DNA from: Bacteroidota bacterium
Lineage (GTDB): Bacteria > Bacteroidota > Bacteroidia > JABEUT01
Length of the DNA stretch: 60,139 nt
NCBI GenBank assembly: GCA_021823405.1
Contig: JAKAOA010000003.1
Coordinates: 1 to 60,139, forward strand
Reading direction: 5' to 3'
In this document: positions 1-10,855 of the stretch, one piece after another
Position numbering within the stretch: the stretch's first letter is position 1
Layout: each line of letters opens with the position of its first letter
Notes under the pieces: generated by a model
Told to the model about the DNA's origin: nothing
Databases searched by the model: none
What the model saw: only the letters and a program-made list of their open reading frames with translations
Made by a program: the position numbers and the translations under genes

Positions 1-428
1 CGATCTTTGCAAATCAGTGCCGGTATATCTCTATAATTTACTATTAAATCCTTTCATCTATTTTTATTGGCTTTATTCATTTGCGCTGCCTAACCCCAAT
101 TACAGCAGTATTTTAGCAATAGAATTAAGCACAAGATAAAATGACAACATCTACAATAAGCCAAAGTTAATCTTTTTTACCTCTCACCCTCTTCTTGCAC
201 AAGGAGAGGGCAGGGTGAGGTAGAGTAATGGCTGATTGAGTTCAAGTGAACCCTCTCCTTACTCAAGGAGAGGGCAGGGTGAGGTAGAGTAATGGTCGTT
301 TGAGTTCAAGTGAACCCTCTTCTTGCACAAAGAGAGGGCAGGGTGAGGTAGAATAAGGGCAGAATGAGGCAGATTGTTAATAAATAAATTATCAATATAT
401 GTATTATGTAATAAATAATGTATATATT
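1..428. repeat. Long direct repeat, copy A. It may continue past the left window edge and lies 3' of the cassette.
   Basis: Near-identical to 3615..4104 with only scattered substitutions, except that it carries one fewer 64-bp unit. Both copies end at the shared ...aataatgtatatatt. Confidence 0.9.
187..378. repeat. Tandem array of 3 x 64-bp units, each with a 10-bp-stem hairpin.
   Basis: Units start at 187, 251 and 315. Each has the form ccctctcctt-nnnn-aaggagaggg followed by cagggtgaggtagagtaatgg..tgagttcaagtgaa. Confidence 0.9.
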
Positions 429-433
429 CTATA

Positions 434-639
434 GTACCCGCTAAGCTTAGCCCGCTGTAATTTGTTTTGCGGGCTGGCTTAGTGGGTTAGTAAAAAGTAA
501 GCTGTGCTTATTATATTTGCAATATGAAAACTATTTTTAAGTATAACTTAAAGGACTTTTTACCCACTAAGGCAATTTCTGCCCGAACTGTAGCAGGCGG
601 GCACGAAACAAATGCAGGTGAATTGACCTTAGCGGGTAC
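434..639. repeat. 206-bp palindromic element with nested inverted repeats around a promoter-like box.
   Basis: gtacccgctaag (434-445) is the exact reverse complement of cttagcgggtac (628-639). cttagtgggt (478-487) is the reverse complement of acccactaag (562-571). Each arm also has its own GC hairpin (agcccgc..gcgggct and tgcccg..cgggca). TATATTTG lies at 512-519 in the centre. Confidence 0.75.
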
Positions 640-769
640 GGGTTTAAGAGATGATAAAAACAAAAGCGAGATTTTTGTTGACAGGCGAAAGTGTCTATCT
701 GAACGTCATCCCTTTATGGGGCAGGAGAATAAAGTTTGTCTTAAGAGAAAAGACAAATAAGGAAAGATC

Positions 770-1177
770 CTAAGTACCCGCGGCATTACGTTCAAAATCA
801 AGTGGCGCAGATTTCTTGGCTAGTTTCTTAGCTATTCTCTTGGTATCACCGAGAATTAATGCATGCGCTCCATTTTGCGTATCTTCAGCAGGATAGGGGT
901 CATGTCTACACTCATAATTATTCTCTATTGGAATTTGGGCTAAAAATTCGGCAACTCTAAAGGATGTAAGTTCCCCTATAAATCTATTAATATCAAGTGT
1001 CAGAACCTTAATATTTATAGATAATCCATTTTCATCTCGTTTTGTTTTGAAAGCTGCACTGGTAGGATAATAACGACCATCAATCTTTTTAAAGAAGTGG
1101 ACAAATATAGGGTTGTCTATAATTGGAAACCTTCGAAGTAAATAATCTTCATTTATTATGGAATATAAAGTACACAT
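770..1177 (-). CDS. Hypothetical 135-aa protein, third gene of the cassette operon. No family assigned.
   Basis: The ORF starts 1 nt after the upstream gene's stop. Local pattern is ..YYPTSAAFKTK..GLSINI.. and ..NGAHALILGD... AT-rich codon usage matches its two partners. Confidence 0.65.
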   Translation of the reverse strand: MCTLYSIINEDYLLRRFPIIDNPIFVHFFKKIDGRYYPTSAAFKTKRDENGLSINIKVLTLDINRFIGELTSFRVAEFLAQIPIENNYECRHDPYPAEDTQNGAHALILGDTKRIAKKLAKKSAPLDFERNAAGT

Positions 1178-1178
1178 G

Positions 1179-1673
1179 TTAAACTGCTACAAATAGGTCT
1201 AAAACAGAATATGGATCCGATAGCTTATCTTCAACTGTAATATCACCTTCATTGTTATAAATAATAAGATTCAGTTGCCCGTTCTCACCTATCTCGATTT
1301 CTGCCATTGCATTTTCATCATCGAATTCAAATTGCACCCCACCATCTCTCATTGGGAAAACATTAATGTGAGCAGTATTAGTTGAACCAATGTGAGTATC
1401 TATAATACCCAATATTTCTATAGCTTTAATTATAGCCGTAGGAGAAATTGCATTAGCATTGTAGCTATCCCAATTCTGTTTAAGATCTTTAAAAGAATTT
1501 ATTGAATTAAGTAGCTTTAAATACCTATCATCGGTTACTGTGGGTGTACTAATATCAAAAAAAGGTACAGGTCCTTGTATAAATAAGTTATTGGCGGTAC
1601 TACCAGTTACGAAAGTACTCCAAGTCTTGGAGTCCATGGTATTGTCAAATAATAATTCCGGAGTATATGCCAT
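1179..1673 (-). CDS. Hypothetical 164-aa protein, second gene of the cassette operon. Possibly immunity/antitoxin-like.
   Basis: There is a 2-nt gap to the upstream gene's stop. The motif LKQNWDSYNANAISPTAI is reminiscent, from memory, of small immunity-type proteins. The C-terminus is acidic. Confidence 0.65.
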   Translation of the reverse strand: MAYTPELLFDNTMDSKTWSTFVTGSTANNLFIQGPVPFFDISTPTVTDDRYLKLLNSINSFKDLKQNWDSYNANAISPTAIIKAIEILGIIDTHIGSTNTAHINVFPMRDGGVQFEFDDENAMAEIEIGENGQLNLIIYNNEGDITVEDKLSDPYSVLDLFVAV

Positions 1674-1675
1674 AT

Positions 1676-3526
1676 TTAATTGTTTGGAAATTTATAATTA
1701 CTTAATTTAAGTATTATACATAGAGCATAAAGAGGGTGAACAAAAGAATATTCATAATTGTCCATTAATCCGTGCGCTATGCGGTTTCTAAGATTTATTC
1801 CAGCTTTATCGGATAATATATATCTCATAAAAAACACATTATCCTGTCCCAACTGAAATTTTAATCCGTCTAATAGTTCATCAAGTATACATTCCATTAT
1901 AATTCCGGATGGACCTTTAGGAACTGGCTTGAACGAGGGAATCCCAAATTTTGTGCATAATTCTCTAAGTAAGTATTCTATTTTTAGAATAAGAGAATCT
2001 GTGGCTATCATAAAATTTGGTGACTGAGTTGGATGGTTTTTCCAATATTCTAATTCTTTAAAGAAAAGTTCAAGACCGGGCGAAATCATTGCCAAATAAT
2101 CGATTTCTTTCTCTGTTCCGTAAACTTTTCTAATGGCTGGGGCATTCAACCATGTTTTTTTTAAGAATGAAATAACTGAAACATAAGAAATCTTTTCTGC
2201 TCTATGTGCCTCTAAAAAGAAATTTATTAAGGTTTGGGTTGCGACCTGGAAATGAATACCATATACTCTTTTAAATGTAAAATCATTCTTTTCATCATCT
2301 GAGGTATATTTAGCTATCGTATTCCCAAATTTATCTATAACTTCTGAATTCATTAAATTAAGTAAGACGTTTTCATGGGACATTCCTTTTGACATTTCCT
2401 TAATCTCCTCCAAGGGTCTGATCATAGGTAAAAAAAGCAGTGTCTTGATTATGGTCTCTTGGTCTCCATTGGTCACGGTATCTTTTATGTAATCCAGTAT
2501 TTCTTTTGTTTCGTCGTCAGTAAAAGACATTCTACTTTTATTTAACGTAAAGTGGTTCCGGTATTTGACATATTCGACTTGTAGTCGCTTATGATTCTTT
2601 TCGTCCTTTAAATCCTTGTGGATTTTCATTGCTTGTACAATAAAAGATACGGTAGAGATATCGTCTCTTTTTAGACCTTCTTTCGCTAAAATTTCACATT
2701 GGTTAGCTTTTAGACGCAAAAAGGTTTCACGACTTGATTTGGTGAGTTTAATTAGTTTCAAACTAATGTCACTTGTATAAATAGCTCCCCAGGCATTATT
2801 GTGATTGCTTAAGAAGTTAGCAGCTTCTAAATTTTTGGTTAGTATTCTTGAAACATCTACATACCTGCTGAATTCCCTATAATATTTTATTGCGAAGTCT
2901 GTTAAGTCAATAATTACTCGCAAAGTACTTCTACTATTTAAATTCCATTCACTGTGAGTTGTAACAATATAATCGGTTAAGAATTTAACTTTTTCAGCGA
3001 ATTTTCGATAATAAGCGATATAATAGGCATTGCTTAAAGCTGCTTTGAAATTAAAAATGTAATGAAATTCATCATCGTTGATCTTAGCTTTGTTTAGATA
3101 ACTGTTTGTTAAATCAATTAAGGTGTCAAGCAAAACTATAGACTCTTCTTTTGATAATTTACCCTTGTAAAAGAGTAGCAATCCATATTCGGATTTTGCA
3201 TATTTGTTTTTGCATGATTGGAATCGCTTATGGATATGTTCGAATTGATAGTTGTCCCATTCCCTGATATTGGGCCACTCGAACGGGACAATTGTCCCAT
3301 CGTCCAATTTCCGCTCACCCCTCAATTTAAAAAATACTCCTTTGTCGGGATTTTTATTAAATTCGAAAGTATGTCTCTCGGCTTCAGATTTAAGGAGATC
3401 ATCTTCTAGATTTTCCTTATGAAATTCATCACTAACTTCAATGAATTCATGGAGAATGAGATCCTTTTGCCTTTCATCCCAGTCAGACTCATCAATTTTT
3501 TTATATACCTGATTAAGTAGACTCAT
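1676..3526 (-). CDS. 616-aa protein with a C-terminal HEPN-like (Rx4H) motif, DUF4209/Abi-like. Putative RNase effector.
   Basis: The long ORF is clean. The C-terminus reads ...SDKAGINLRNRIAHGLMDNYEY..., which is R-N-x-x-A-H with a polar residue after Arg, as in HEPN active sites. The preceding ~540 aa are helical and K/E/N-rich with no recognisable domain. Confidence 0.75.
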   Translation of the reverse strand: MSLLNQVYKKIDESDWDERQKDLILHEFIEVSDEFHKENLEDDLLKSEAERHTFEFNKNPDKGVFFKLRGERKLDDGTIVPFEWPNIREWDNYQFEHIHKRFQSCKNKYAKSEYGLLLFYKGKLSKEESIVLLDTLIDLTNSYLNKAKINDDEFHYIFNFKAALSNAYYIAYYRKFAEKVKFLTDYIVTTHSEWNLNSRSTLRVIIDLTDFAIKYYREFSRYVDVSRILTKNLEAANFLSNHNNAWGAIYTSDISLKLIKLTKSSRETFLRLKANQCEILAKEGLKRDDISTVSFIVQAMKIHKDLKDEKNHKRLQVEYVKYRNHFTLNKSRMSFTDDETKEILDYIKDTVTNGDQETIIKTLLFLPMIRPLEEIKEMSKGMSHENVLLNLMNSEVIDKFGNTIAKYTSDDEKNDFTFKRVYGIHFQVATQTLINFFLEAHRAEKISYVSVISFLKKTWLNAPAIRKVYGTEKEIDYLAMISPGLELFFKELEYWKNHPTQSPNFMIATDSLILKIEYLLRELCTKFGIPSFKPVPKGPSGIIMECILDELLDGLKFQLGQDNVFFMRYILSDKAGINLRNRIAHGLMDNYEYSFVHPLYALCIILKLSNYKFPNN

Positions 3527-3614
3527 GCCATTAGTGTATAGTTACTTAAATATACAGAAAAAAAGTCGTTCATACACTGTTTACAATATATAGCCATAAA
3601 ATCTCCCGTAGGCG

Positions 3615-4104
3615 CTGATTTGTAATCAGTGCCGGTATATCTCTTTAATTTACAATTAAATCCTTTCATCTATTTTTATTGGCTTTATTCATTTGCACTG
3701 CCTAACCCCAATTACAGCAGCATTTTAGCAATAGAATTAAGCACAAGATAAAATGACAACATCTACAATAAGCCAAAGTTAATCTTTTTTACCTCTCACC
3801 CACTTCTTGCATAAGGAGAGGGCAGGGTGAGGTATAGTAATGGTGGTTTGAGTTCAAGTGAACCCTCTCCTTACTTTAGGAGAGGGCAGGGTGAGGTATA
3901 GTAATGGTCGTTTGAGTTCAAGTGAACCCTCTCCTTACTCAAGGAGAGGGCAGGATGAGGTAGAATAATGGTCGTTTGAGTTCAAGTGAACCCTCTCCTT
4001 GCACAAGGAGAGGGCAGGGTGAGGTAGAATAAGGGCAGGATGAGGCAGATTGTTAATAAATAAATTATCAATATATGTATTATGTAATAAATAATGTATA
4101 TATT
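3615..4104. repeat. Long direct repeat, copy B. It is the 5' leader/promoter region of the cassette operon.
   Basis: Aligns to 1..428 and carries four rather than three 64-bp units. Confidence 0.9.
3799..4054. repeat. Tandem array of 4 x 64-bp hairpin units.
   Basis: Units start at 3799, 3863, 3927 and 3991. The consensus is the same as at 187..378, and variation is concentrated in the loop and upper stem (ttgcataa, ttactttag, ttactcaag, ttgcacaag). Confidence 0.9.
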
Positions 4105-4270
4105 TGCGTTCTTTAGCGATGAGAGATAAGATATGAGCTATAAACGATAAGCTATGAGATATAAGCTATAAGATATAAAAGATGAACAATGAGATAAACT
4201 TCTAACTGCTATAAAATGATTTTGATAACAGAAAATATAGTGCCTGTGAATTATTTTGTAAAGGAAAAAA

Positions 4271-4314
4271 TACCGGCAATGAATGAAAATGCAAAACATT
4301 CATGTCGCTATAAC
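4271..4314. repeat. 44-bp palindromic element, copy 1 of 2 in the window.
   Basis: taccggcaatgaatgaaaatgcaaaacattcatgtcgctataac matches 45491..45534 at about 40 of 44 positions. Its core is atgaatg..cattcat. Confidence 0.7.
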
Positions 4315-4794
4315 GTCAAATTTTCAAATCTTTATAAAATTATTGGAAATCAACATGTTTCATTAAAATATCTGAAATACACCTCCACCCCCCAATATGA
4401 AAAAATACGCATTTTCCGACAAAAAGCGACAGAATTTGCTACGCCTTTCAGGACTGGTATCAACAGGGAACAGCCATACGGACAGGGCAATAGACAAGGT
4501 GTTAATGGTGCGGCGCCGTTTTCGGCTAATTACGTCGGCAGGTGCAAGAGAAATATTGGCTCAATCCCGCGAACCAACTATAATTGTTGAAATTCAGCGA
4601 ACAAGAGAAATAGCAGAAAATAGCGCTGTTATCAAAAAAGCCATAATTAGCCATTTTTAGCCAAATGTTAAAATATAGGCATACACTCCCCGTAAACGAT
4701 TTTGCTTCGCTAAATCAATTGCCGGCAATATACAATGGCACCGGCATGTTTAACTTACGATTAACTTTTTGCCGAAGAGATGAGCGGAAATGAT

Positions 4795-4802
4795 TAAATT
4801 TG
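4795..4802 (+). promoter_or_regulatory. Bacteroidota -7 promoter box (TAnnTTTG) for clpX.
   Basis: TAAATTTG lies 40 nt upstream of the clpX ATG. Confidence 0.45.
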
Positions 4803-4841
4803 CATAAACTAATTTGACATCGGCGCGAAAATTCAACTCCA

Positions 4842-6089
4842 ATGGCGGAAAAAGATTTAATAAAATGTTCCTTTTGCGGTAAAGACAAAAAGGATGTTTT
4901 CATGATGATAGGCGGTTTGAGCGGTCATATCTGTAATCAATGTATTGAGCAGGCGCAAAAGATTGTAGAGGAAGAATACAAGCAGCGGCTCCAGCCCAAC
5001 AAAATTCAACTGACAAAACCTTCGGAAATAAAGAGGCGGCTCGATGAATATATTATTGACCAGGATGACGCCAAAAAGGTAATGTCGGTGGCAGTGTACA
5101 ACCATTACAAGAGAATACTTCAGAATAAGTCGGAGAAACAGAACGACGAAGATGATGTTGAACTCGAAAAGTCGAACATCATTCTGGTAGGAGAAACGGG
5201 AACAGGCAAAACCCTCCTCGCCCAAACAATAGCCCGTATTTTAAATGTACCCTTCTGCATTGCTGATGCAACCGCCTTCACCGAAGCCGGCTATGTAGGC
5301 GAAGATGTGGAGAATGTACTCGTGCGGCTGCTGCAAGCGGCAAATTACGATGTAGCGGCAGCTGAAAAGGGCATAGTTTTTATAGACGAAATAGATAAAA
5401 TATCGCGCAAAGAAGGTGACAGCCCTTCCATAACAAGAGATGTAGGCGGCGAGGGCGTTCAGCAGGCATTGCTTAAAATGCTTGAAGGTTCAATAGTAAA
5501 TGTTCCTCCTCATGGCGGTAGAAAACATCCCGAACAGAAGACCATCCCTGTGAATACCAAAGACATATTATTCGTATGCGGCGGAGCGTTCAACGGTATA
5601 GAGAAAAAAATTGGACGGCGGCTACAGTCGCATGCCATCGGTTACTTTTCTCAAAGCGAAAAGCAGGAAATAGACCGTAATAATATGCTACAGTATGTTT
5701 CGCCGGAAGACCTGAAAAGTTTCGGTTTAATACCGGAACTTATAGGACGGCTTCCTGTAATTACCTTCCTTAACCCGCTCAACAAGGAAAGTTTGAAACG
5801 AATACTTACCGAACCGAAGAACGCTCTTATAAGGCAATACACCAAGTTATTCGCCATCGACGGGATAAAACTTACCTTTGATAAAAGTGTGTACAACCTT
5901 ATTGTGGAAAAAGCCCTTGACTATAAACTCGGGGCAAGAGGATTGCGCGCTATCTGTGAGGCGATACTTACCGATGCCATGTACGAAACGCCTTCAAAAT
6001 CGGACGTAAAGGAATTTCATGTAACATTGCGATATGCAAAAGAGAAAATAGAACGTTCTGCATCTCTTAATCGTCTTAAGGCGGCTTAA
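4842..6089 (+). CDS. clpX: ATP-dependent Clp protease ATP-binding subunit ClpX.
   Basis: N-terminal zinc finger CSFCGK..CNQC, Walker A GETGTGKT, and [31 protein letters not shown]. Confidence 0.97.
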
Positions 6090-6117
6090 ACCCTAATAAC
6101 CGGACATACATACAGAT

Positions 6118-6708
6118 ATGAAAAAGGGATATATTGTTCTTATAGTAATACTGGGATTATTGTTGATGATGTTTCTATGGGTTAAGAACATCTACAATAA
6201 TATAGTTACCATGGATGAAGCGGTAACCGCCCAATGGCATAACGTAGAAACTCAATACCAGCGTCGTATGGACCTTATCCCTAACCTTGTAAACACTGTA
6301 AAGGGATACGCCAATTTTGAAAAATCAACGCTCACAGCAGTAATAGATGCCAGAGCCAACGCTTCTAAAGTTACCATTGACCCAAGCCATATCACCCCAG
6401 ACCAGATGCAGCAGTTCGAAGCGGCACAGGGGCAGTTGTCCTCATCTTTATCCCGGCTTCTGGTTACTGTTGAGCGCTACCCTGACTTGAAAGCCGACCA
6501 AAATTTTTTGAGTTTGCAGGCGCAGCTTGAAGGCACCGAGAACCGTATTGCAACCGAACGCCGTCGGTTCAATGAAGCTGCCCAGGATTTTAACACCTAT
6601 ATCAGGCGCTTCCCGCAGAATATTTTTGCAGGAATGTTTAATTTCCAGACGAGGGCATATTTCAGTTCCGACCAGGGCGCCGAAAAGGCACCACAGGTGA
6701 ATTTTTAA
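6118..6708 (+). CDS. lemA: LemA family membrane protein.
   Basis: An N-terminal TM segment followed by QWHNVETQYQRRMDLIPNLVNTVKGYANFE, typical of LemA. Confidence 0.9.
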   Translation: MKKGYIVLIVILGLLLMMFLWVKNIYNNIVTMDEAVTAQWHNVETQYQRRMDLIPNLVNTVKGYANFEKSTLTAVIDARANASKVTIDPSHITPDQMQQFEAAQGQLSSSLSRLLVTVERYPDLKADQNFLSLQAQLEGTENRIATERRRFNEAAQDFNTYIRRFPQNIFAGMFNFQTRAYFSSDQGAEKAPQVNF

Positions 6709-6791
6709 CTGACTGTTGAATAGCCCAAAGCGCCTGTGCCATCCGGAAAATGGCGTCAGTAAAAATTCAATGGGTTCTTACTGCGGAGCGG

Positions 6792-7940
6792 TTACTTCAG
6801 CAGCTGGTGTATCCTTATGCTTGTGCTCATGAATAATATTTTTGGATTGGCGTTCCGCTCAATTGCATGAAAGACCTTATTCAGCTCTTCAGCAATGAGC
6901 GCTGCCTGCGAAAACGGAAGATACGTTGAAAACTTTATCAGAAATTCCTCTTCGTTTTGTCGCAACCTCACCGGGAATCCAACCCCAAGCAGTAAACTCT
7001 GTCTTATCAGTTGAATGCAGTACGCCATGAACTGTTTCTGCTTTTCCCTGCCAATGCCCGCCATTTCGGTAACCCATCCGATAATACCTTCCCCATTCAG
7101 TTTCATACATATTCTCATCCATTCTGCGAACTTCTGAAAATGAAAGTCGGTATGCTCTTTATCGCTTGCCAGTATTCGGGCAACGCGGTAGTTGCCTTCT
7201 GATGTTTGCGCTATATATCGGGCTGCCTCGCCGGTGAGTTCATATTTGCATATCAGGTCAGCTATCATCTCTTCTTCGTCTATTCGCGGCACCCTTGTAA
7301 GCTGCGTTCTGGATAATATGGTAATGGGGAGATGGGAGTTTTCCGTTATTAATATGAAGATGGTCTTATCCGGCGGCTCTTCCAGTACTTTCAGTATCTT
7401 ATTGGCAGTGGTAATATTCATCTTTTCAGCCATCCACATAATCACAACCTTATACGAACCCTCGAACGAGGTAAGGCTTAGCTGATGAATTATTTCTCTG
7501 GCTTCATCCACACCTATTACCATCTGCTTGTTCTCCACTTCAAGCGCTTCCATCCAGTCGGCAAGCGATAAGTAAGGGTTTTGCAGAAATGCCTCCTTCC
7601 ATTGATGGAATACATCTATGCTTTTGCTTATCCCGCCTGATTTTGACTCTGTCCCTCGTATGCCGCCTTCCTTCGATTTGGTAAGGGAAAGAGGATAAAC
7701 AAAATGAACATCGGGATGCATGAGTTTGGCTATTTTGCGGCATTCCGGACACTCGCCGCATGAATCGGTTTCGCTTTTATTTTTACAAAAAAGGTATTGA
7801 ATGTATGCCATTACTAGCGGAAGCGCTCCGTTGCCTTCAGGTCCGGCGAATAGTTGCGCGTGGCTTATTCGCCCTTCTCTTGCAGATTGCAGAATAGATT
7901 GTTTTACACGCTTTTGTCCTATTACTTCGGAGAATTGCAT
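6792..7940 (-). CDS. holB: DNA polymerase III subunit delta'.
   Basis: ISHAQLFAGPEGNGALP (AAA+ P-loop variant), zinc module CGECPECRKI, and LKVLEEPP. Confidence 0.9.
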   Translation of the reverse strand: MQFSEVIGQKRVKQSILQSAREGRISHAQLFAGPEGNGALPLVMAYIQYLFCKNKSETDSCGECPECRKIAKLMHPDVHFVYPLSLTKSKEGGIRGTESKSGGISKSIDVFHQWKEAFLQNPYLSLADWMEALEVENKQMVIGVDEAREIIHQLSLTSFEGSYKVVIMWMAEKMNITTANKILKVLEEPPDKTIFILITENSHLPITILSRTQLTRVPRIDEEEMIADLICKYELTGEAARYIAQTSEGNYRVARILASDKEHTDFHFQKFAEWMRICMKLNGEGIIGWVTEMAGIGREKQKQFMAYCIQLIRQSLLLGVGFPVRLRQNEEEFLIKFSTYLPFSQAALIAEELNKVFHAIERNANPKILFMSTSIRIHQLLK

Positions 7941-7980
7941 CGGCGTTATTAAAAGGAGGTGAATGAAAAATAGAGAGGAA

Positions 7981-8409
7981 TTATTCTTTCAGGAGGTAAG
8001 TGTAACGAACGGTAATCAGGTCGGGGGTTTGATAGTCGAGAACAAGCTTGTTCGCCTCAATACTAATGGCTTTGAACAGCATCTTGGTTTCGGTTGTAGC
8101 TCCGGATGATTTCGATACGGTATTTAAATAAACGCCTGCGGCTTTCCATGTTCCGCTGCCGCTAACGCCTTCTGTAGTAATTAAAAAAGAGCCATCTGTG
8201 TTGAATGTCACACAGTCGCCTTTTTCTTTGGCGTTTGCCGTATGCGCAACATCGAACATTTCAACCGAATCCAGTTTCCACGTTTTGCAGAGCATTTTAA
8301 CCTTGTCCGCCGTAAGGTTTACGCCGTGCGATACTCTCCACGATGGCTGCGCCCTACCTGAAAGCGATACCATTATAACGAGGATGGAAATTAAAGCTGT
8401 TTTTTTCAT
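7981..8409 (-). CDS. Small secreted hypothetical protein, lipocalin-like by size.
   Basis: Signal peptide MKKTALISILVIMVSLSGRAQ. The start was chosen at the internal Met rather than the ORF-track start at 8448. Confidence 0.6.
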   Translation of the reverse strand: MKKTALISILVIMVSLSGRAQPSWRVSHGVNLTADKVKMLCKTWKLDSVEMFDVAHTANAKEKGDCVTFNTDGSFLITTEGVSGSGTWKAAGVYLNTVSKSSGATTETKMLFKAISIEANKLVLDYQTPDLITVRYTYLLKE

Positions 8410-8437
8410 GATTTTTTGGGATTGATATTTATACAGA

Positions 8438-10855
8438 TTAATGAACAAATACTTTTACATACTGGTATTGCTGATATTTTTCTTGATCCTGTGCATCTTC
8501 AGCATAATCGGGACCTTGAACTTCGGCATTCATCTCAAATCTCAATTTCTTGACATTCGCCTGTCTTTTTTTAAGGGCGTTCAGAATTGTTGTCTTTTCG
8601 GATTGCCCTCTTTTTTCCGCCAGTATCCTGTTGCTGTTTTCGTATTGGGCGCTTGTAGGTACTTTGGATGCGCTGGATTGAATGGTTACCGTTACCGAAT
8701 CGTGCATCAGCCGGTTCCTGATTTTATTTATCAAAGCGATAAAATTACTTGCTTTCTGTATATTCTGGTCGGCATTATATTTGAAATATTCAACAAAATC
8801 GGCATCTTCGGCAGATATTCGGATAATCTTCGGGGCAACTGCTGCAACTCTTGATATCTCCGATAAATCATCAAGATTGGCGGGTAAGTCGTGATAATAA
8901 TATGAGTCCTCGGTATTCTGATCGAAATTGCGCACTACTTTACCTTTGCTGTTCGCAAGTAAAAGTTTCTTCAGATGTTTTAACTTGGTATCCTTCAAAT
9001 CAATCTTTATTTGGTAACTCTTATTTCTCGGCAGCTTATAGAAAGTAAAGTGACCATGTTTATCGGTTAGGGTTGTTTGAATAACATTGCCTTTCTCATC
9101 AATCAACTGTATCTGCATATTAGCCAGTGGAGTGAGTGGTGCATCATTCAATAGAATTGAGCCGGTCATTGAATCGAGGGGCGTTTTTGGTTTTGGTACG
9201 AACACGTTGGTTGTATCGCCCAGAATAATTCCAGTCCGGAAGAAGGCGCGCGATAGCGAGTAGTATGAGCTATCTGCTGGTAGATAGAAATTTTGGTTGA
9301 ACACATTCTTGCCCTGGGTAGAAATTACCACATTATAAGTTTGATTCGGGCGCAGTACTTGCAGAAATTTACCGGTTTTCGGATTGGTTCTCGCCTTTAT
9401 CACATTTTTATGTCCATTCACCGCCGATGTTTTTATTATAATATCATTCGGTATGGGTTTATTATCCGGCGAGCGTATATAGCCCGAAAGCACTGCAACA
9501 TGTTTTACGGGTAAGGGAACGTTAAATATGACCTCATAAATATCTTTTTCTCCTATCTCATCCTTTCTAACGGTACTGTAATACGCTCTTCTTCCATCAG
9601 GCGATACGTTAAAATAGGCATCATCGTCGGGGGTATTGATAGGATACCCGAGGTTTGTCGGCTTTCCCCATGTTGCTCCCGTATCCATCTGCGCCATGAA
9701 TACATCAAAGCCCCCCATAGTGTTATGACCTTTTGAACTGAAAAATAATGTTGAGTCATCGGCGTGTATAAAGGGTGCATCTTCGTCATATTCGGTATTG
9801 ATGTTCGGTCCCAGATTAACTGGCTGGCTCCATCTACCACTGTCGGAAATGGTTATTTTGTATAAATCGGCGCCGCCGATTCCGCCTGCCCGATCGCTTG
9901 AAAAAATAAGCGTTTTACCATCCGGGCTGATACAGGCACCCCTGCCGGCAGTACCGTTGTTTATCGTACCCGGGCTAGCCGAATCCAATGTCTGACCTCC
10001 GCTCCACTGCATACCGCGCAGATAACTTACATAGAGGTTATTGGCGCCGGTTTCCGACTGAACGAAGAATAACTCCTGTCCGTCTGGCGAAACAGAAAGG
10101 GTTGCATTGTTTCCGCCTGCATTTACCGTATTGCCAAGAGTTTTAGCTTTTGTCCAGGAGTTGTCAGTTTTAGGATAGGATATCCACATTTGTTCATTGT
10201 AAAACCCTAAAGAATCTTTTTCAGAGTTAGAGTCATTAATACCACCTAATCGGCGGGAGGTAAATAGAATTTCCTGTTCATCGGCGGAAACAGCCGGATT
10301 ATAATCGGGATACTTACTGTTTATGCTGTCACCCATGTTTATTATTTTGCAATCTACAGGCGATTTTACAAGTTCAATACCGCTACTGCAACAGTTGATC
10401 CAATAATCTATATCCTTCTGGCGAGGGTCGGATTTGGACAACATTTTTTTGAATACATTAAAGCTATAAATGGCATCGTTAAATAGATAATTTATATGTT
10501 GTGCGCGGGCGTAGTAGTAATAGGCGGGTGCTGGCGCATCCTTTTCGTACGGGTCATCGGGCGTATATCTTGATGTGATATGCGCAGCTGCCTTTTGGAG
10601 GTATGGCAGCGCCTTATATTTATAAGCGGGGGTTTCAAGATAGAGTTGTCCGATAAAATAACATACGTTGGCATTCTGCGTATCTGCCTTGTAAAGTTGC
10701 AGGAAGGTTCTTAATGATGAGTCGCTAAGGTGTTCATTCATCATCAGGTTGCCTTGTGTGAACAGGTAACGGATATTCTCGTTCCCTGAACCCTTCTGCG
10801 CAGACAGGTGGAGAGAGATAATTGTTAAAACCGCTACTGCGATAATTTTTTTCAA
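8438..10855 (-). CDS. TPR / PD40 (TolB-like beta-propeller) / CarboxypepD_reg-like envelope protein with a divergent OmpA-like C-terminus.
   Basis: Signal peptide, repeated SPDG/SADE PD40-type motifs, GSILLND..GHFTFYKLP, and a C-terminus reading TVTIQSSASKVPT..NSNRILAEKRG. Confidence 0.8.
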   Translation of the reverse strand: MKKIIAVAVLTIISLHLSAQKGSGNENIRYLFTQGNLMMNEHLSDSSLRTFLQLYKADTQNANVCYFIGQLYLETPAYKYKALPYLQKAAAHITSRYTPDDPYEKDAPAPAYYYYARAQHINYLFNDAIYSFNVFKKMLSKSDPRQKDIDYWINCCSSGIELVKSPVDCKIINMGDSINSKYPDYNPAVSADEQEILFTSRRLGGINDSNSEKDSLGFYNEQMWISYPKTDNSWTKAKTLGNTVNAGGNNATLSVSPDGQELFFVQSETGANNLYVSYLRGMQWSGGQTLDSASPGTINNGTAGRGACISPDGKTLIFSSDRAGGIGGADLYKITISDSGRWSQPVNLGPNINTEYDEDAPFIHADDSTLFFSSKGHNTMGGFDVFMAQMDTGATWGKPTNLGYPINTPDDDAYFNVSPDGRRAYYSTVRKDEIGEKDIYEVIFNVPLPVKHVAVLSGYIRSPDNKPIPNDIIIKTSAVNGHKNVIKARTNPKTGKFLQVLRPNQTYNVVISTQGKNVFNQNFYLPADSSYYSLSRAFFRTGIILGDTTNVFVPKPKTPLDSMTGSILLNDAPLTPLANMQIQLIDEKGNVIQTTLTDKHGHFTFYKLPRNKSYQIKIDLKDTKLKHLKKLLLANSKGKVVRNFDQNTEDSYYYHDLPANLDDLSEISRVAAVAPKIIRISAEDADFVEYFKYNADQNIQKASNFIALINKIRNRLMHDSVTVTIQSSASKVPTSAQYENSNRILAEKRGQSEKTTILNALKKRQANVKKLRFEMNAEVQGPDYAEDAQDQEKYQQYQYVKVFVH

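Follow-up and report, generated by a model that had tools for sequence, protein, structure and literature searches.

A DUF4209 HEPN gene and an exchangeable two-gene cassette: a candidate three-component conflict system of Bacteroidota

We describe a locus of three closely packed genes on the minus strand of a 60,139-nucleotide (nt) stretch of DNA from a Bacteroidota bacterium (GenBank assembly GCA_021823405.1, contig JAKAOA010000003.1, positions 1 to 60,139; this whole stretch is called the window below). The first gene (gene 1) encodes a full-length HEPN protein of the DUF4209/ERMARD family, and it is followed by genes for a small acidic protein (g2) and for a small protein without recognisable relatives (g3). 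We find that in other Bacteroidota the place after the DUF4209 gene is taken either by relatives of g2 and g3 or by non-homologous pairs of small genes, in most of which the second gene encodes a PIN domain. From these comparisons we consider it likely that the locus is a conflict system of some kind. The more specific proposal, namely that a HEPN ribonuclease (RNase), an acidic adaptor or antitoxin and an exchangeable effector are wired together as an abortive-infection and/or addiction module, has in our judgement about an even chance of being correct.

The assignment of gene 1 rests on a profile match, on its conserved motifs and on the published classification of its family. Pfam PF13910 (DUF4209, listed as 'EMARD_N' in neighbourhood tables) matches residues 517–607 (E 3e-9; score 37.3 bits, gathering cut-off 22.3) and spans profile positions 2–88 of 89. 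The PADLOC family PDC-S39 is matched through two of its profiles, PDLC05011 (E 3.9e-19) and PDLC05012 (E 6.1e-15), with the best stretch at residues 504–608, membership being judged here by the E-values of the hidden Markov models (HMMs) and not by PADLOC's own score thresholds; searches of NCBIfam and PHROGs gave nothing further. Seventy full-length homologues of approximately 620 amino acids (aa) were found, 63 of which carry the same DUF4209 domain in precomputed annotation. When 32 homologues with identities down to 19% are aligned, R580 and H585 do not vary, and N578, L579 and G586 are nearly invariant. Most of the 32 have N or H directly after R580, a few having Q, K, E or S there, the HEPN motif being defined as R-[N/D/H]-x-x-x-H (Anantharaman et al., 2013; PMC3710099). 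D510, S511, L512, K515, E517 and R521 are likewise invariant. The initial annotation, which was made from the sequence by eye, had proposed a HEPN active site at this C-terminus, and the PF13910 match together with the invariant R580 and H585 and the E517...R521 helix bears this out. The Rx4H motif and the ExxxR helix form the pattern expected of an active HEPN domain, and RNase activity is predicted from it.

DUF4209 is the C6orf70/ERMARD family, which was classed as a catalytically active HEPN family; its bacterial members were placed in 'R-M related operons', that is, operons related to restriction-modification, and its eukaryotic members were predicted to degrade RNA at the membrane of the endoplasmic reticulum (Anantharaman et al., 2013; PMC3710099). 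In a 2026 preprint, human EMARD is still a hypothetical HEPN enzyme. The family-specific N-terminal region of gene 1 (approximately 500 aa) contains four further residues that are invariant among the 32 homologues (R101, Y114, D398 and W459), and it matches no Pfam, NCBIfam, PHROG or PADLOC family at E<=1. Profile searches of PDB sequences with full-length DUF4209 and with the HEPN domain found no solved relative.

Co-occurrence and synteny of the three genes across Bacteroidota, which had been proposed as a check on the initial annotation, were found when starting from DUF4209 and, separately, when starting from g3. All three close homologues of gene 1 (42–55% identity) lie in unrelated neighbourhoods and are followed by overlapping or abutting genes for proteins of 166–171 aa and 123–127 aa, and remoter homologues (33–37% identity) are followed by a small gene of 88–120 aa and by a gene of 126–154 aa for a PIN or PIN-like protein. 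A species-level scan, with one genome per species, gave 79 loci, nearly all from Bacteroidota. Sixty-five loci with a complete DUF4209 gene were sorted by ad hoc open reading frame (ORF) calls and by HMMs built for this analysis. Relatives of g2 and g3 follow the DUF4209 gene in 29 of the 65, the window included (type A). Another 24 have a small gene non-homologous to g2, after which a PIN gene was detected in 22 (type B), and the remaining 12 have neither pair, four of them on contigs that are cut within 800 nt of the gene. A partner pair is present in 53 of the approximately 61 informative loci (~85%), in the same order and orientation, and the ORFs in related loci overlap by 4–40 nt or sit a few nt apart. 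A metagenome search anchored on g3 gave 44 loci, and approximately 30 of the ~35 with enough upstream DNA have the order DUF4209-g2-g3. As the trio recurs in dozens of unrelated genomes, we regard the arrangement as beyond chance.

At least three subfamilies (PF01850 variants and PF13470) are represented among the PIN genes of type B, and every subfamily comes with a small, unannotated partner of its own. In total, at least five non-homologous small-gene pairs were found in the same slot after DUF4209. Homology of the type-A with the type-B small proteins, or of g3 with PIN, was rejected by hhalign (probability 0.2%), which makes the pairs non-homologous replacements of each other. The type-B small partners gave no match to known antitoxin families. 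In a neighbour-joining tree of the DUF4209 proteins the partner type follows the clades, with few switches. By eye, type-B small partners that are otherwise dissimilar (for example those of loci L039, L029 and L011, the last at 2173–2439) share an N-terminal pattern resembling (V/I)xxEPxxxYxxxxW, through which they may all dock onto the DUF4209 protein. We also note one locus (L127) with two DUF4209 genes within 7 kb (1644–4363 and 6743–8335) in a tandem arrangement, the first with g2 and g3 and the second 2.4 kb downstream.

The components are also found in other combinations. In one locus, L131 (448–2820), a complete DUF4209 protein and a complete g2 are encoded by a single in-frame ORF of 790 aa, which is followed by g3; this would be in keeping with g2 touching the gene 1 protein at its C-terminal, HEPN-containing end. 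Five g3 loci have no DUF4209 gene. Among the loci of this kind, L111 has g2 and g3 alone, and in L125 (3008–3988) and L126 (3292–4005) the g2 core carries different N-terminal extensions (proteins of 326 and 237 aa) and is again followed by g3. Since g2 and g3 occur in these three loci without DUF4209, the pair can stand by itself in the manner of a toxin-antitoxin pair, and the sequences hint at the g2 domain being a general adaptor that joins different front ends to g3. The front ends in L125 and L126 are approximately 230 aa, predicted by eye to be helical, and approximately 130 aa, and the architecture resembles that of PADLOC family PDC-M32A. Conversely, DUF4209 genes without the small pair occur in L048, L054, L065, L071 and L078 and on prophage-like contigs of gut Bacteroidales. 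A distant DUF4209 protein of 639 aa was seen in L071, L143 and L145 (~3665–6893), from gut Bacteroidales of the Butyricimonas/Alistipes type and from prophage-like IMG/VR contigs. Its gene is preceded by an overlapping ORF of 444 aa with a motif that resembles a GKT P-loop by eye, and no pair follows downstream.

Several of the loci lie on mobile elements or beside other toxin-antitoxin genes. Five Hymenobacter plasmids carry DUF4209 homologues, and g2 and g3 follow on both plasmids that were examined. These plasmid trios adjoin HipBA, or an MmeI restriction-modification gene and ParA/Rep. Their proteins are called just 'DUF4209 domain-containing' and 'hypothetical' in RefSeq. In locus L132 the trio adjoins ParDE and a Fic gene and lies between perfect direct repeats of at least 300 nt (39–338 and 6345–6644), which are a duplicated 3′-end of the Fic gene.

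Alternatively, the locus could consist of two modules that do not communicate, with a single-gene DUF4209 system of the PDC-S39 kind in front and an autonomous toxin-antitoxin pair hitch-hiking behind it as an addiction cassette. Such a view is in line with the occurrence of DUF4209 and of g2-g3 each without the other, with the variety of non-homologous pairs in the one slot, and with loci that have further toxin-antitoxin genes (HipBA, ParDE) around them. Nevertheless we consider it unlikely, although the strongest of the alternatives, because the slot is occupied in ~85% of loci with enough downstream DNA, in fixed order and orientation and with overlapping or near-abutting ORFs, because partner types are stable within clades, and because DUF4209 is present in ~30 of 35 g3-anchored loci. 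The fusion of DUF4209 with g2 in L131 also speaks for a connection, as do small partners that resemble no known antitoxin and the EPxxxYxxxxW-like motif seen by eye across the PIN pairs. We therefore favour a module in which all three genes act together.

For g2, an AF2 model built from a 70-sequence alignment (pLDDT 83 overall and >95 for residues 50–150) has a disordered N-terminus of 48 residues and, behind it, two helices and an antiparallel sheet of five strands (alpha2-beta5). The core carries the pattern NWDSYxA ... FPMRDGGxQFEFD ... AELEI, and the protein is strongly acidic, with a pI of 4.06 (family median 4.6). No Pfam family matches g2, and this includes HTH, RHH and AbrB domains. 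Residues 58–149 match the C-terminal domain of PDC-M32A (E 1.3e-7). An exhaustive search gave 546 representative relatives, mostly stand-alone proteins of 100–200 aa; two giant repeat proteins with 11–12 g2 matches each (P0084 and P0092) were ignored, as one short tandem-repeat unit is matched repeatedly in them. Foldseek found no significant match of the g2 model in the PDB. A comparison with TriTu, which confers immunity to the Rhs ADP-ribosyltransferase toxin TreTu, gave a non-significant match (E 0.11, TM-score 0.43 on the target). On the strength of the model, the alpha2-beta5 domain is a predicted new domain that is also present at the C-terminus of PDC-M32A.

The g3 protein has no match in Pfam, PADLOC, NCBIfam, PHROGs or the PDB sequences, whether searched as a single sequence or as a family, which is in agreement with the initial annotation, where it fitted no known family. 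Its AF2 model (pLDDT 88, pTM 0.82) is a compact alpha/beta fold with seven strands, and R15, G34, F43, G51, S53, H105 and A106 are invariant in the family alignment. Modelled in this way, g3 is an orphan fold with an Arg/His pair that is suggestive of catalysis. The best Foldseek match in the PDB was 9ldi (TkoKptA; E 0.37, TM-score 0.43), and eight chains of the Tpt1/KptA type were among the top 50, none of them significant; in BFVD, two Tpt1 entries were matched, again non-significantly (E 1.2–2.6). A likeness can also be seen by eye between 'LLRRFP...GLSVDI' in g3 and 'LRHxP..GLxLD' in KptA. When 18 g3 sequences were compared by hhalign with nine diverse KptA sequences (E. coli and plasmid homologues), the probability was 0.8% (E 0.07), equal to that of negative controls. 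As this is at the level of noise, a Tpt1/KptA identity of g3, and with it membership of the ADP-ribosyltransferase (ART) fold, was dropped as a claim and is kept as a weak lead.

Copies of g2 were also found on phage-like DNA. A phage-like contig that was recovered from two samples (L133, the same as L139) contains g2 and a g3 without its 3′-end, in a stretch of 820 nt (L133 3486–4305) that agrees at every position (100% identity) with the chromosomal system of a Lentimicrobiaceae genome (L020, 6798–7617). An Rnl2-type RNA ligase gene (PF09414/PF18043, phrog_548) directly precedes this stretch, and a Nudix protein and phrog_34511 are encoded on the contig as well. From the sequence, this looks like a recent capture of a putative antitoxin by a mobile element. 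The gene just downstream appears TnpB-like by eye. Fusions and chimeras are possible among metagenomic contigs; this phage-like locus was assembled independently in the two samples. Three viral contigs from IMG/VR, one of them 429 kb long, encode proteins of ~100 aa that consist of the g2 core only (NWxxYxA ... VFPMRDGGxQ), and close to the gene in two of these, L095 and L096, are a P-loop kinase resembling polynucleotide kinase (PNK) and a 254-aa ORF that is likely a metallophosphatase, judged by eye from a GDxHG motif. These viral proteins are candidate anti-defence decoys. On the viral contigs searched, g3 was not found.

The phage copies bring to mind the RnlA-RnlB and LsoA-LsoB systems. 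In rnlAB and lsoAB, the gene for the large HEPN protein is followed by the gene for a small protein, and phage T4 encodes Dmd, which neutralises RnlA. Our locus shares with these systems a large multidomain HEPN RNase gene in the first position, a small-protein gene downstream, and a phage-borne protein that may play the part of T4 Dmd; it differs in having a third conserved gene (g3 or PIN) and in the N-terminal domains of the HEPN protein. One could thus imagine that DUF4209 is the sole toxin and g2 its dedicated antitoxin, with g3 or PIN being an accessory, such as an activator, an enzyme that processes RNA ends or a second-line effector against phage RNA repair. The order of the genes, a large HEPN gene and then a small acidic one, mirrors rnlAB and lsoAB, the fusion in L131 ties g2 to the HEPN protein and not to g3, and the Tpt1/KptA type ranks repeatedly, if weakly, among the Foldseek matches of g3 in two libraries, with phage copies beside RNA ligase and PNK-like genes. 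Even so we find this arrangement improbable, since g2-g3 pairs without DUF4209 would be hard to explain by it and since the Tpt1 link fails in hhalign and stays at E >=0.37 and TM-scores <0.45 in Foldseek. Furthermore, no sequence similarity to RnlA/LsoA or RnlB/LsoB was detected: the PADLOC matches listed for gene 1 and g2 at E<=1 were limited to PDC-S39 and PDC-M32A, with neither RnlA nor RnlB among them, if we assume that RnlAB models are included in PADLOC-DB.

We therefore return to the tripartite module, which we propose because of the intact HEPN signature, the swappable two-gene slot, the tight packing of the ORFs, the fusion of gene 1 with g2, the autonomous g2-g3 pairs, the phage g2 copies near RNA-repair genes, and the plasmid, prophage, toxin-antitoxin and restriction-modification contexts. 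In such a module the C-terminal domain of gene 1 would be an active, metal-independent endoribonuclease, presumably dimeric like other HEPN families, and the ~500-aa N-terminal region could be a sensor or a scaffold. The cassette of g2 and g3 is exchangeable and ordered as in type II toxin-antitoxin pairs, a small, presumably non-enzymatic protein preceding a small enzyme-like one. In uninfected cells the disordered tail and the folded alpha2-beta5 domain of g2 may hold the HEPN protein and g3 inactive. Once a phage infects the cell or another trigger arises, which the N-terminal region of the DUF4209 protein may detect or which may act through loss or titration of g2, the HEPN RNase and g3 would be set free, attack RNA or another nucleic acid and stop growth. 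Put differently, g3 (or PIN) would be a second effector directed at nucleic acid, and g2 (or its type-B analogue) would silence one or both effectors until the trigger arrives. Phage-borne g2 could act as a decoy, as T4 Dmd does against RnlA, and by analogy the RNA ligase and kinase genes beside phage g2 would fit a system that damages RNA. The biochemical activities, the trigger and the assignment of which protein neutralises which are inferred. Taken furthest, the locus would represent an undescribed three-component family of anti-phage systems, in which a DUF4209 sensor-RNase is coupled through the g2 adaptor to either PIN or the new fold of g3 and in which phages capture the adaptor as a decoy and keep it beside RNA-repair enzymes (Rnl2 ligase, PNK-like kinase); this we regard as possible, although doubtful.

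Several observations weigh against the module as proposed. DUF4209 and g2-g3 each occur apart from the other, so that their functional coupling is a putative one. The fusion in L131 is a single metagenomic case that could reflect a sequencing error or a lost stop codon. By Pfam, g2 is devoid of the DNA-binding domain that is typical of type II antitoxins. The prediction that g3 is a toxin is drawn from its position, from two invariant polar residues and from its replacement by PIN, and the protein has no recognisable catalytic fold. Finally, no defence genes neighbour the trio on the visible side of the window, where there are just clpX, a LemA gene and holB.

With respect to systems that are already catalogued, gene 1 is by sequence a distant relative of PDC-S39. 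It shares with it the Pfam family PF13910, a similar length (profiles of 595–615 positions compared with 616 aa) and the C-terminal HEPN domain. The best matched stretch comprises only the C-terminal ~105 residues of gene 1, although a second stretch was also reported, and PDC-S39, itself only a candidate, is scored as a single gene, whereas two more conserved partner genes are present here; gene 1 thus lies outside the single-gene definition. The core of g2 (approximately residues 55–150) matches profile positions ~260–350 of 375 in PDC-M32A, but g2 lacks the N-terminal part of ~260 residues and its partner here is DUF4209. Neither g3 nor gene 1 matches PDC-M32B, and g3 matches no other PADLOC model. 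The initial annotation could match the gene combination to no named system; as a correction, gene 1 (DUF4209) matches the catalogued candidate PDC-S39 (E 4e-19) and g2 shares its core with PDC-M32A. For g3, there is still no known family.

VapBC type II pairs resemble the g2-g3 cassette in having a small upstream gene that overlaps or abuts a downstream gene of ~130 aa (with a 1-nt gap in the window), and in the type-B sister systems the downstream gene even encodes a bona fide PIN domain (PF01850/PF13470). The difference is that the orphan g3 takes the place of PIN in the window and that the pair is subordinate to a large upstream HEPN gene; moreover, g2 and the type-B small partners gave no match to known VapB or antitoxin DNA-binding families. 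The type VII system HepT-MntA, like our locus, combines an Rx4H-bearing HEPN RNase domain with a small putative neutraliser next to it, but the HEPN protein is ~4–5 times larger here, there are three genes, and no nucleotidyltransferase (MNT) domain is present in the three proteins or in those encoded nearby. If g3 were related to Tpt1/KptA, whose structures gave the best though non-significant Foldseek matches of its model, or to the ART-fold toxins, it would be a small nucleic-acid-modifying toxin as DarT is in DarTG. However, g3 is ~50 residues shorter than Tpt1/KptA, no R-H-R-R catalytic tetrad can be aligned, and the profile comparison is at noise. By analogy, then, the system resembles RnlAB/LsoAB or a VapBC pair joined to a HEPN gene, yet appears to belong to neither family. 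In the literature searched, the three-gene architecture, the fold of g2 and the family of g3 are undescribed, and DUF4209 is treated only in the 2013 HEPN survey and in papers with lists of PADLOC hits. What is new is the architecture of the trio, the g2 fold and the g3 family, and the kind of system is a known one, namely HEPN-based toxin-antitoxin or defence modules.

The DUF4209 HEPN domain is shared with ERMARD/C6orf70, and the bacterial versions were proposed as the source of the eukaryotic protein (Anantharaman et al., 2013; PMC3710099). By analogy with ERMARD, the locus might be a housekeeping or stress operon for RNA processing, as DUF4209 is conserved into eukaryotes with a predicted role in RNA degradation at the endoplasmic reticulum membrane, and as the copy in the window adjoins clpX and other core genes. 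ERMARD, on the other hand, is a membrane-anchored eukaryotic protein without operon partners, for which no conflict role has been proposed. The patchy distribution, the differing neighbourhoods among relatives, the carriage on plasmids and prophages, the AT-rich and repeat-flanked setting in the window, the cassettes swapped for PIN toxins and the matches to PADLOC defence candidates all argue for something other than a core function, and a check for matches to housekeeping pathways, suggested along with the initial annotation, returned none for any of the three proteins. We consider a housekeeping role very improbable.

Of still lower probability, to the point of being barely credible, is an interbacterial polymorphic toxin with its immunity protein, a sense in which the initial annotation's 'toxin-immunity' alternative could be understood. 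It could draw on the small acidic g2 as an immunity protein and on the weak Foldseek match of g2 to TriTu (E 0.11). This match is non-significant, the putative toxins (HEPN, PIN) are of a cytoplasmic type, and Pfam and NCBIfam searches of all three proteins gave no signal peptide and no Rhs, PAAR, type VI or type IX secretion system (T6SS/T9SS) or other trafficking domain; secretion genes are also missing from the visible flank of the window. As secretion and trafficking domains are lacking, the alternative found no support.

The coordinates of the locus are collected in Table 1. The description of a closely packed minus-strand trio in the initial annotation proved accurate, with the ORFs at the positions given there and gaps of 2 nt (1674–1675) and 1 nt (1178), and the peptide strings quoted from them (DKAGINLRNRIAHGLMDNYEY, LKQNWDSYNANAISP, PTSAAFK, GLSI and NGAHALILG) are all present in the translations. 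Its remarks on AT-richness and on long bracketing direct repeats hold as well: the GC content is 0.30–0.35 across 750–3500 and 0.40–0.48 from clpX rightwards, and 12–428 aligns with 3624–4104 at ~96% identity.

Table 1. Positions of the genes, domains, motifs and flanking elements (window coordinates, except in the last row, where viral contigs are named).
Feature	Position	Strand	Basis or remark
Gene 1: 616-aa DUF4209/ERMARD-type HEPN protein	1676..3526	-	ORF, Pfam PF13910, PADLOC PDC-S39, homologue alignment
HEPN (DUF4209) domain, residues ~504-608	1703..2017	-	Pfam and PADLOC ranges; most invariant columns lie here
ExxxR helix E517...R521 within TDSLxLKxEYLLR	1964..1978	-	Alignment of 32 homologues
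Predicted catalytic RNxxxH motif R580-N-R-I-A-H585 (NLRNRIAHGL)	1772..1789	-	Alignment of 32 homologues
g2 (gene 2): 164-aa acidic protein, predicted adaptor/antitoxin	1179..1673	-	ORF, AF2 model, PDC-M32A core match
g3 (gene 3): 135-aa orphan alpha/beta protein, predicted effector/toxin	770..1177	-	ORF, AF2 model, invariant columns
Unique 97-nt leader between right repeat and gene-1 start	3527..3623	-	TAtaTTTa box ~25 nt upstream of ATG
Left direct repeat (417 nt), three 64-nt palindrome units at 186-368	12..428	.	Aligns with right repeat at ~96% identity
Right direct repeat (481 nt), four 64-nt units at ~3799-4026	3624..4104	.	Directly upstream of operon on minus strand
g2-core genes on viral contigs	L094 4989-5288; L095 4974-5276; L096 1527-1829

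The right repeat has one additional 64-nt unit compared with the left. Each of the tandem units (3–4 per repeat copy) carries a 24-nt palindrome with a perfect stem, CCCTCTCCTTGCACAAGGAGAGGG, followed by GCAGGGTGAGG; the palindrome motif CCCTCTCCTTGCACAAGGAGAGGG occurs seven times in the 60-kb window, always inside the flanking repeats, with no occurrences expected by chance. The repeats could be an element of the REP/BIME kind or the footprint of a recombination-mediated insertion beside clpX. Long bracketing repeats are not general to the system: among ten other loci checked only L132 has them, so that it is the second such case besides the window. The contig ends at the outer edge of the left repeat copy, which puts the outer flank out of view and may reflect an assembly break at the repeat. 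To the right of the operon, the visible flank is annotated with clpX, a LemA gene and holB, and an exact look-up of ClpX found no other contig with it. A shared insertion site upstream of DUF3467-UbiA was considered for two other loci (L001 and L007) and rejected, as their ~105-aa neighbours are not homologous.

The box in the leader may be a promoter element, as inferred from its sequence and place, and a strict Bacteroidetes promoter pattern has no match in the whole window. A tRNA scan of the whole window and an Rfam scan of positions 1–10000 found nothing. A Cys-containing ORF of 48 aa (3523..3669, minus strand), whose TGA overlaps the ATG of gene 1 (ATGA), was considered as a fourth coupled gene and rejected; it starts inside the right repeat, is stopped early in the left repeat copy and has no counterpart in related loci, and it is probably not a gene. 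A 78-aa ORF on the plus strand (524..760), which converges on the operon, was likewise rejected as a gene, having neither a Pfam match nor a counterpart in related loci. It is spanned by an imperfect 34-nt inverted repeat (434–467 and 606–639, 71% complementary), and instead of a gene there may be a small RNA or a terminator here. Short, AT-rich tandem repeats with periods of 7, 14, 21 and 35 (ATAAGCT/ATAAGATATGAG) cluster at 4115–4196, in the interval that separates the right repeat from clpX, and two unconserved ORFs of 124 and 87 aa without a Pfam match lie at 4216–4660.

DUF4209 is the bacterial counterpart of human ERMARD and has been a predicted HEPN RNase since 2013. Its link, across Bacteroidota, to a swappable pair resembling toxin-antitoxin genes turns what was a single-gene candidate into a defined three-part system, and it brings out two orphan families, one with an adaptor- or antitoxin-like fold that phages seemingly have captured and one of small putative effectors without a recognisable fold. 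If the three-component family is real, g3 would be a new toxin fold and g2 a new family of antitoxins or adaptors and of anti-defence proteins, and the bacterial relatives of human ERMARD would gain their first mechanistic context. Bacteroidota, the gut lineages included, are under-sampled in experimental defence screens, and for this reason a widespread module that is specific to the phylum would be useful for the biology of Bacteroidota phages and their hosts.

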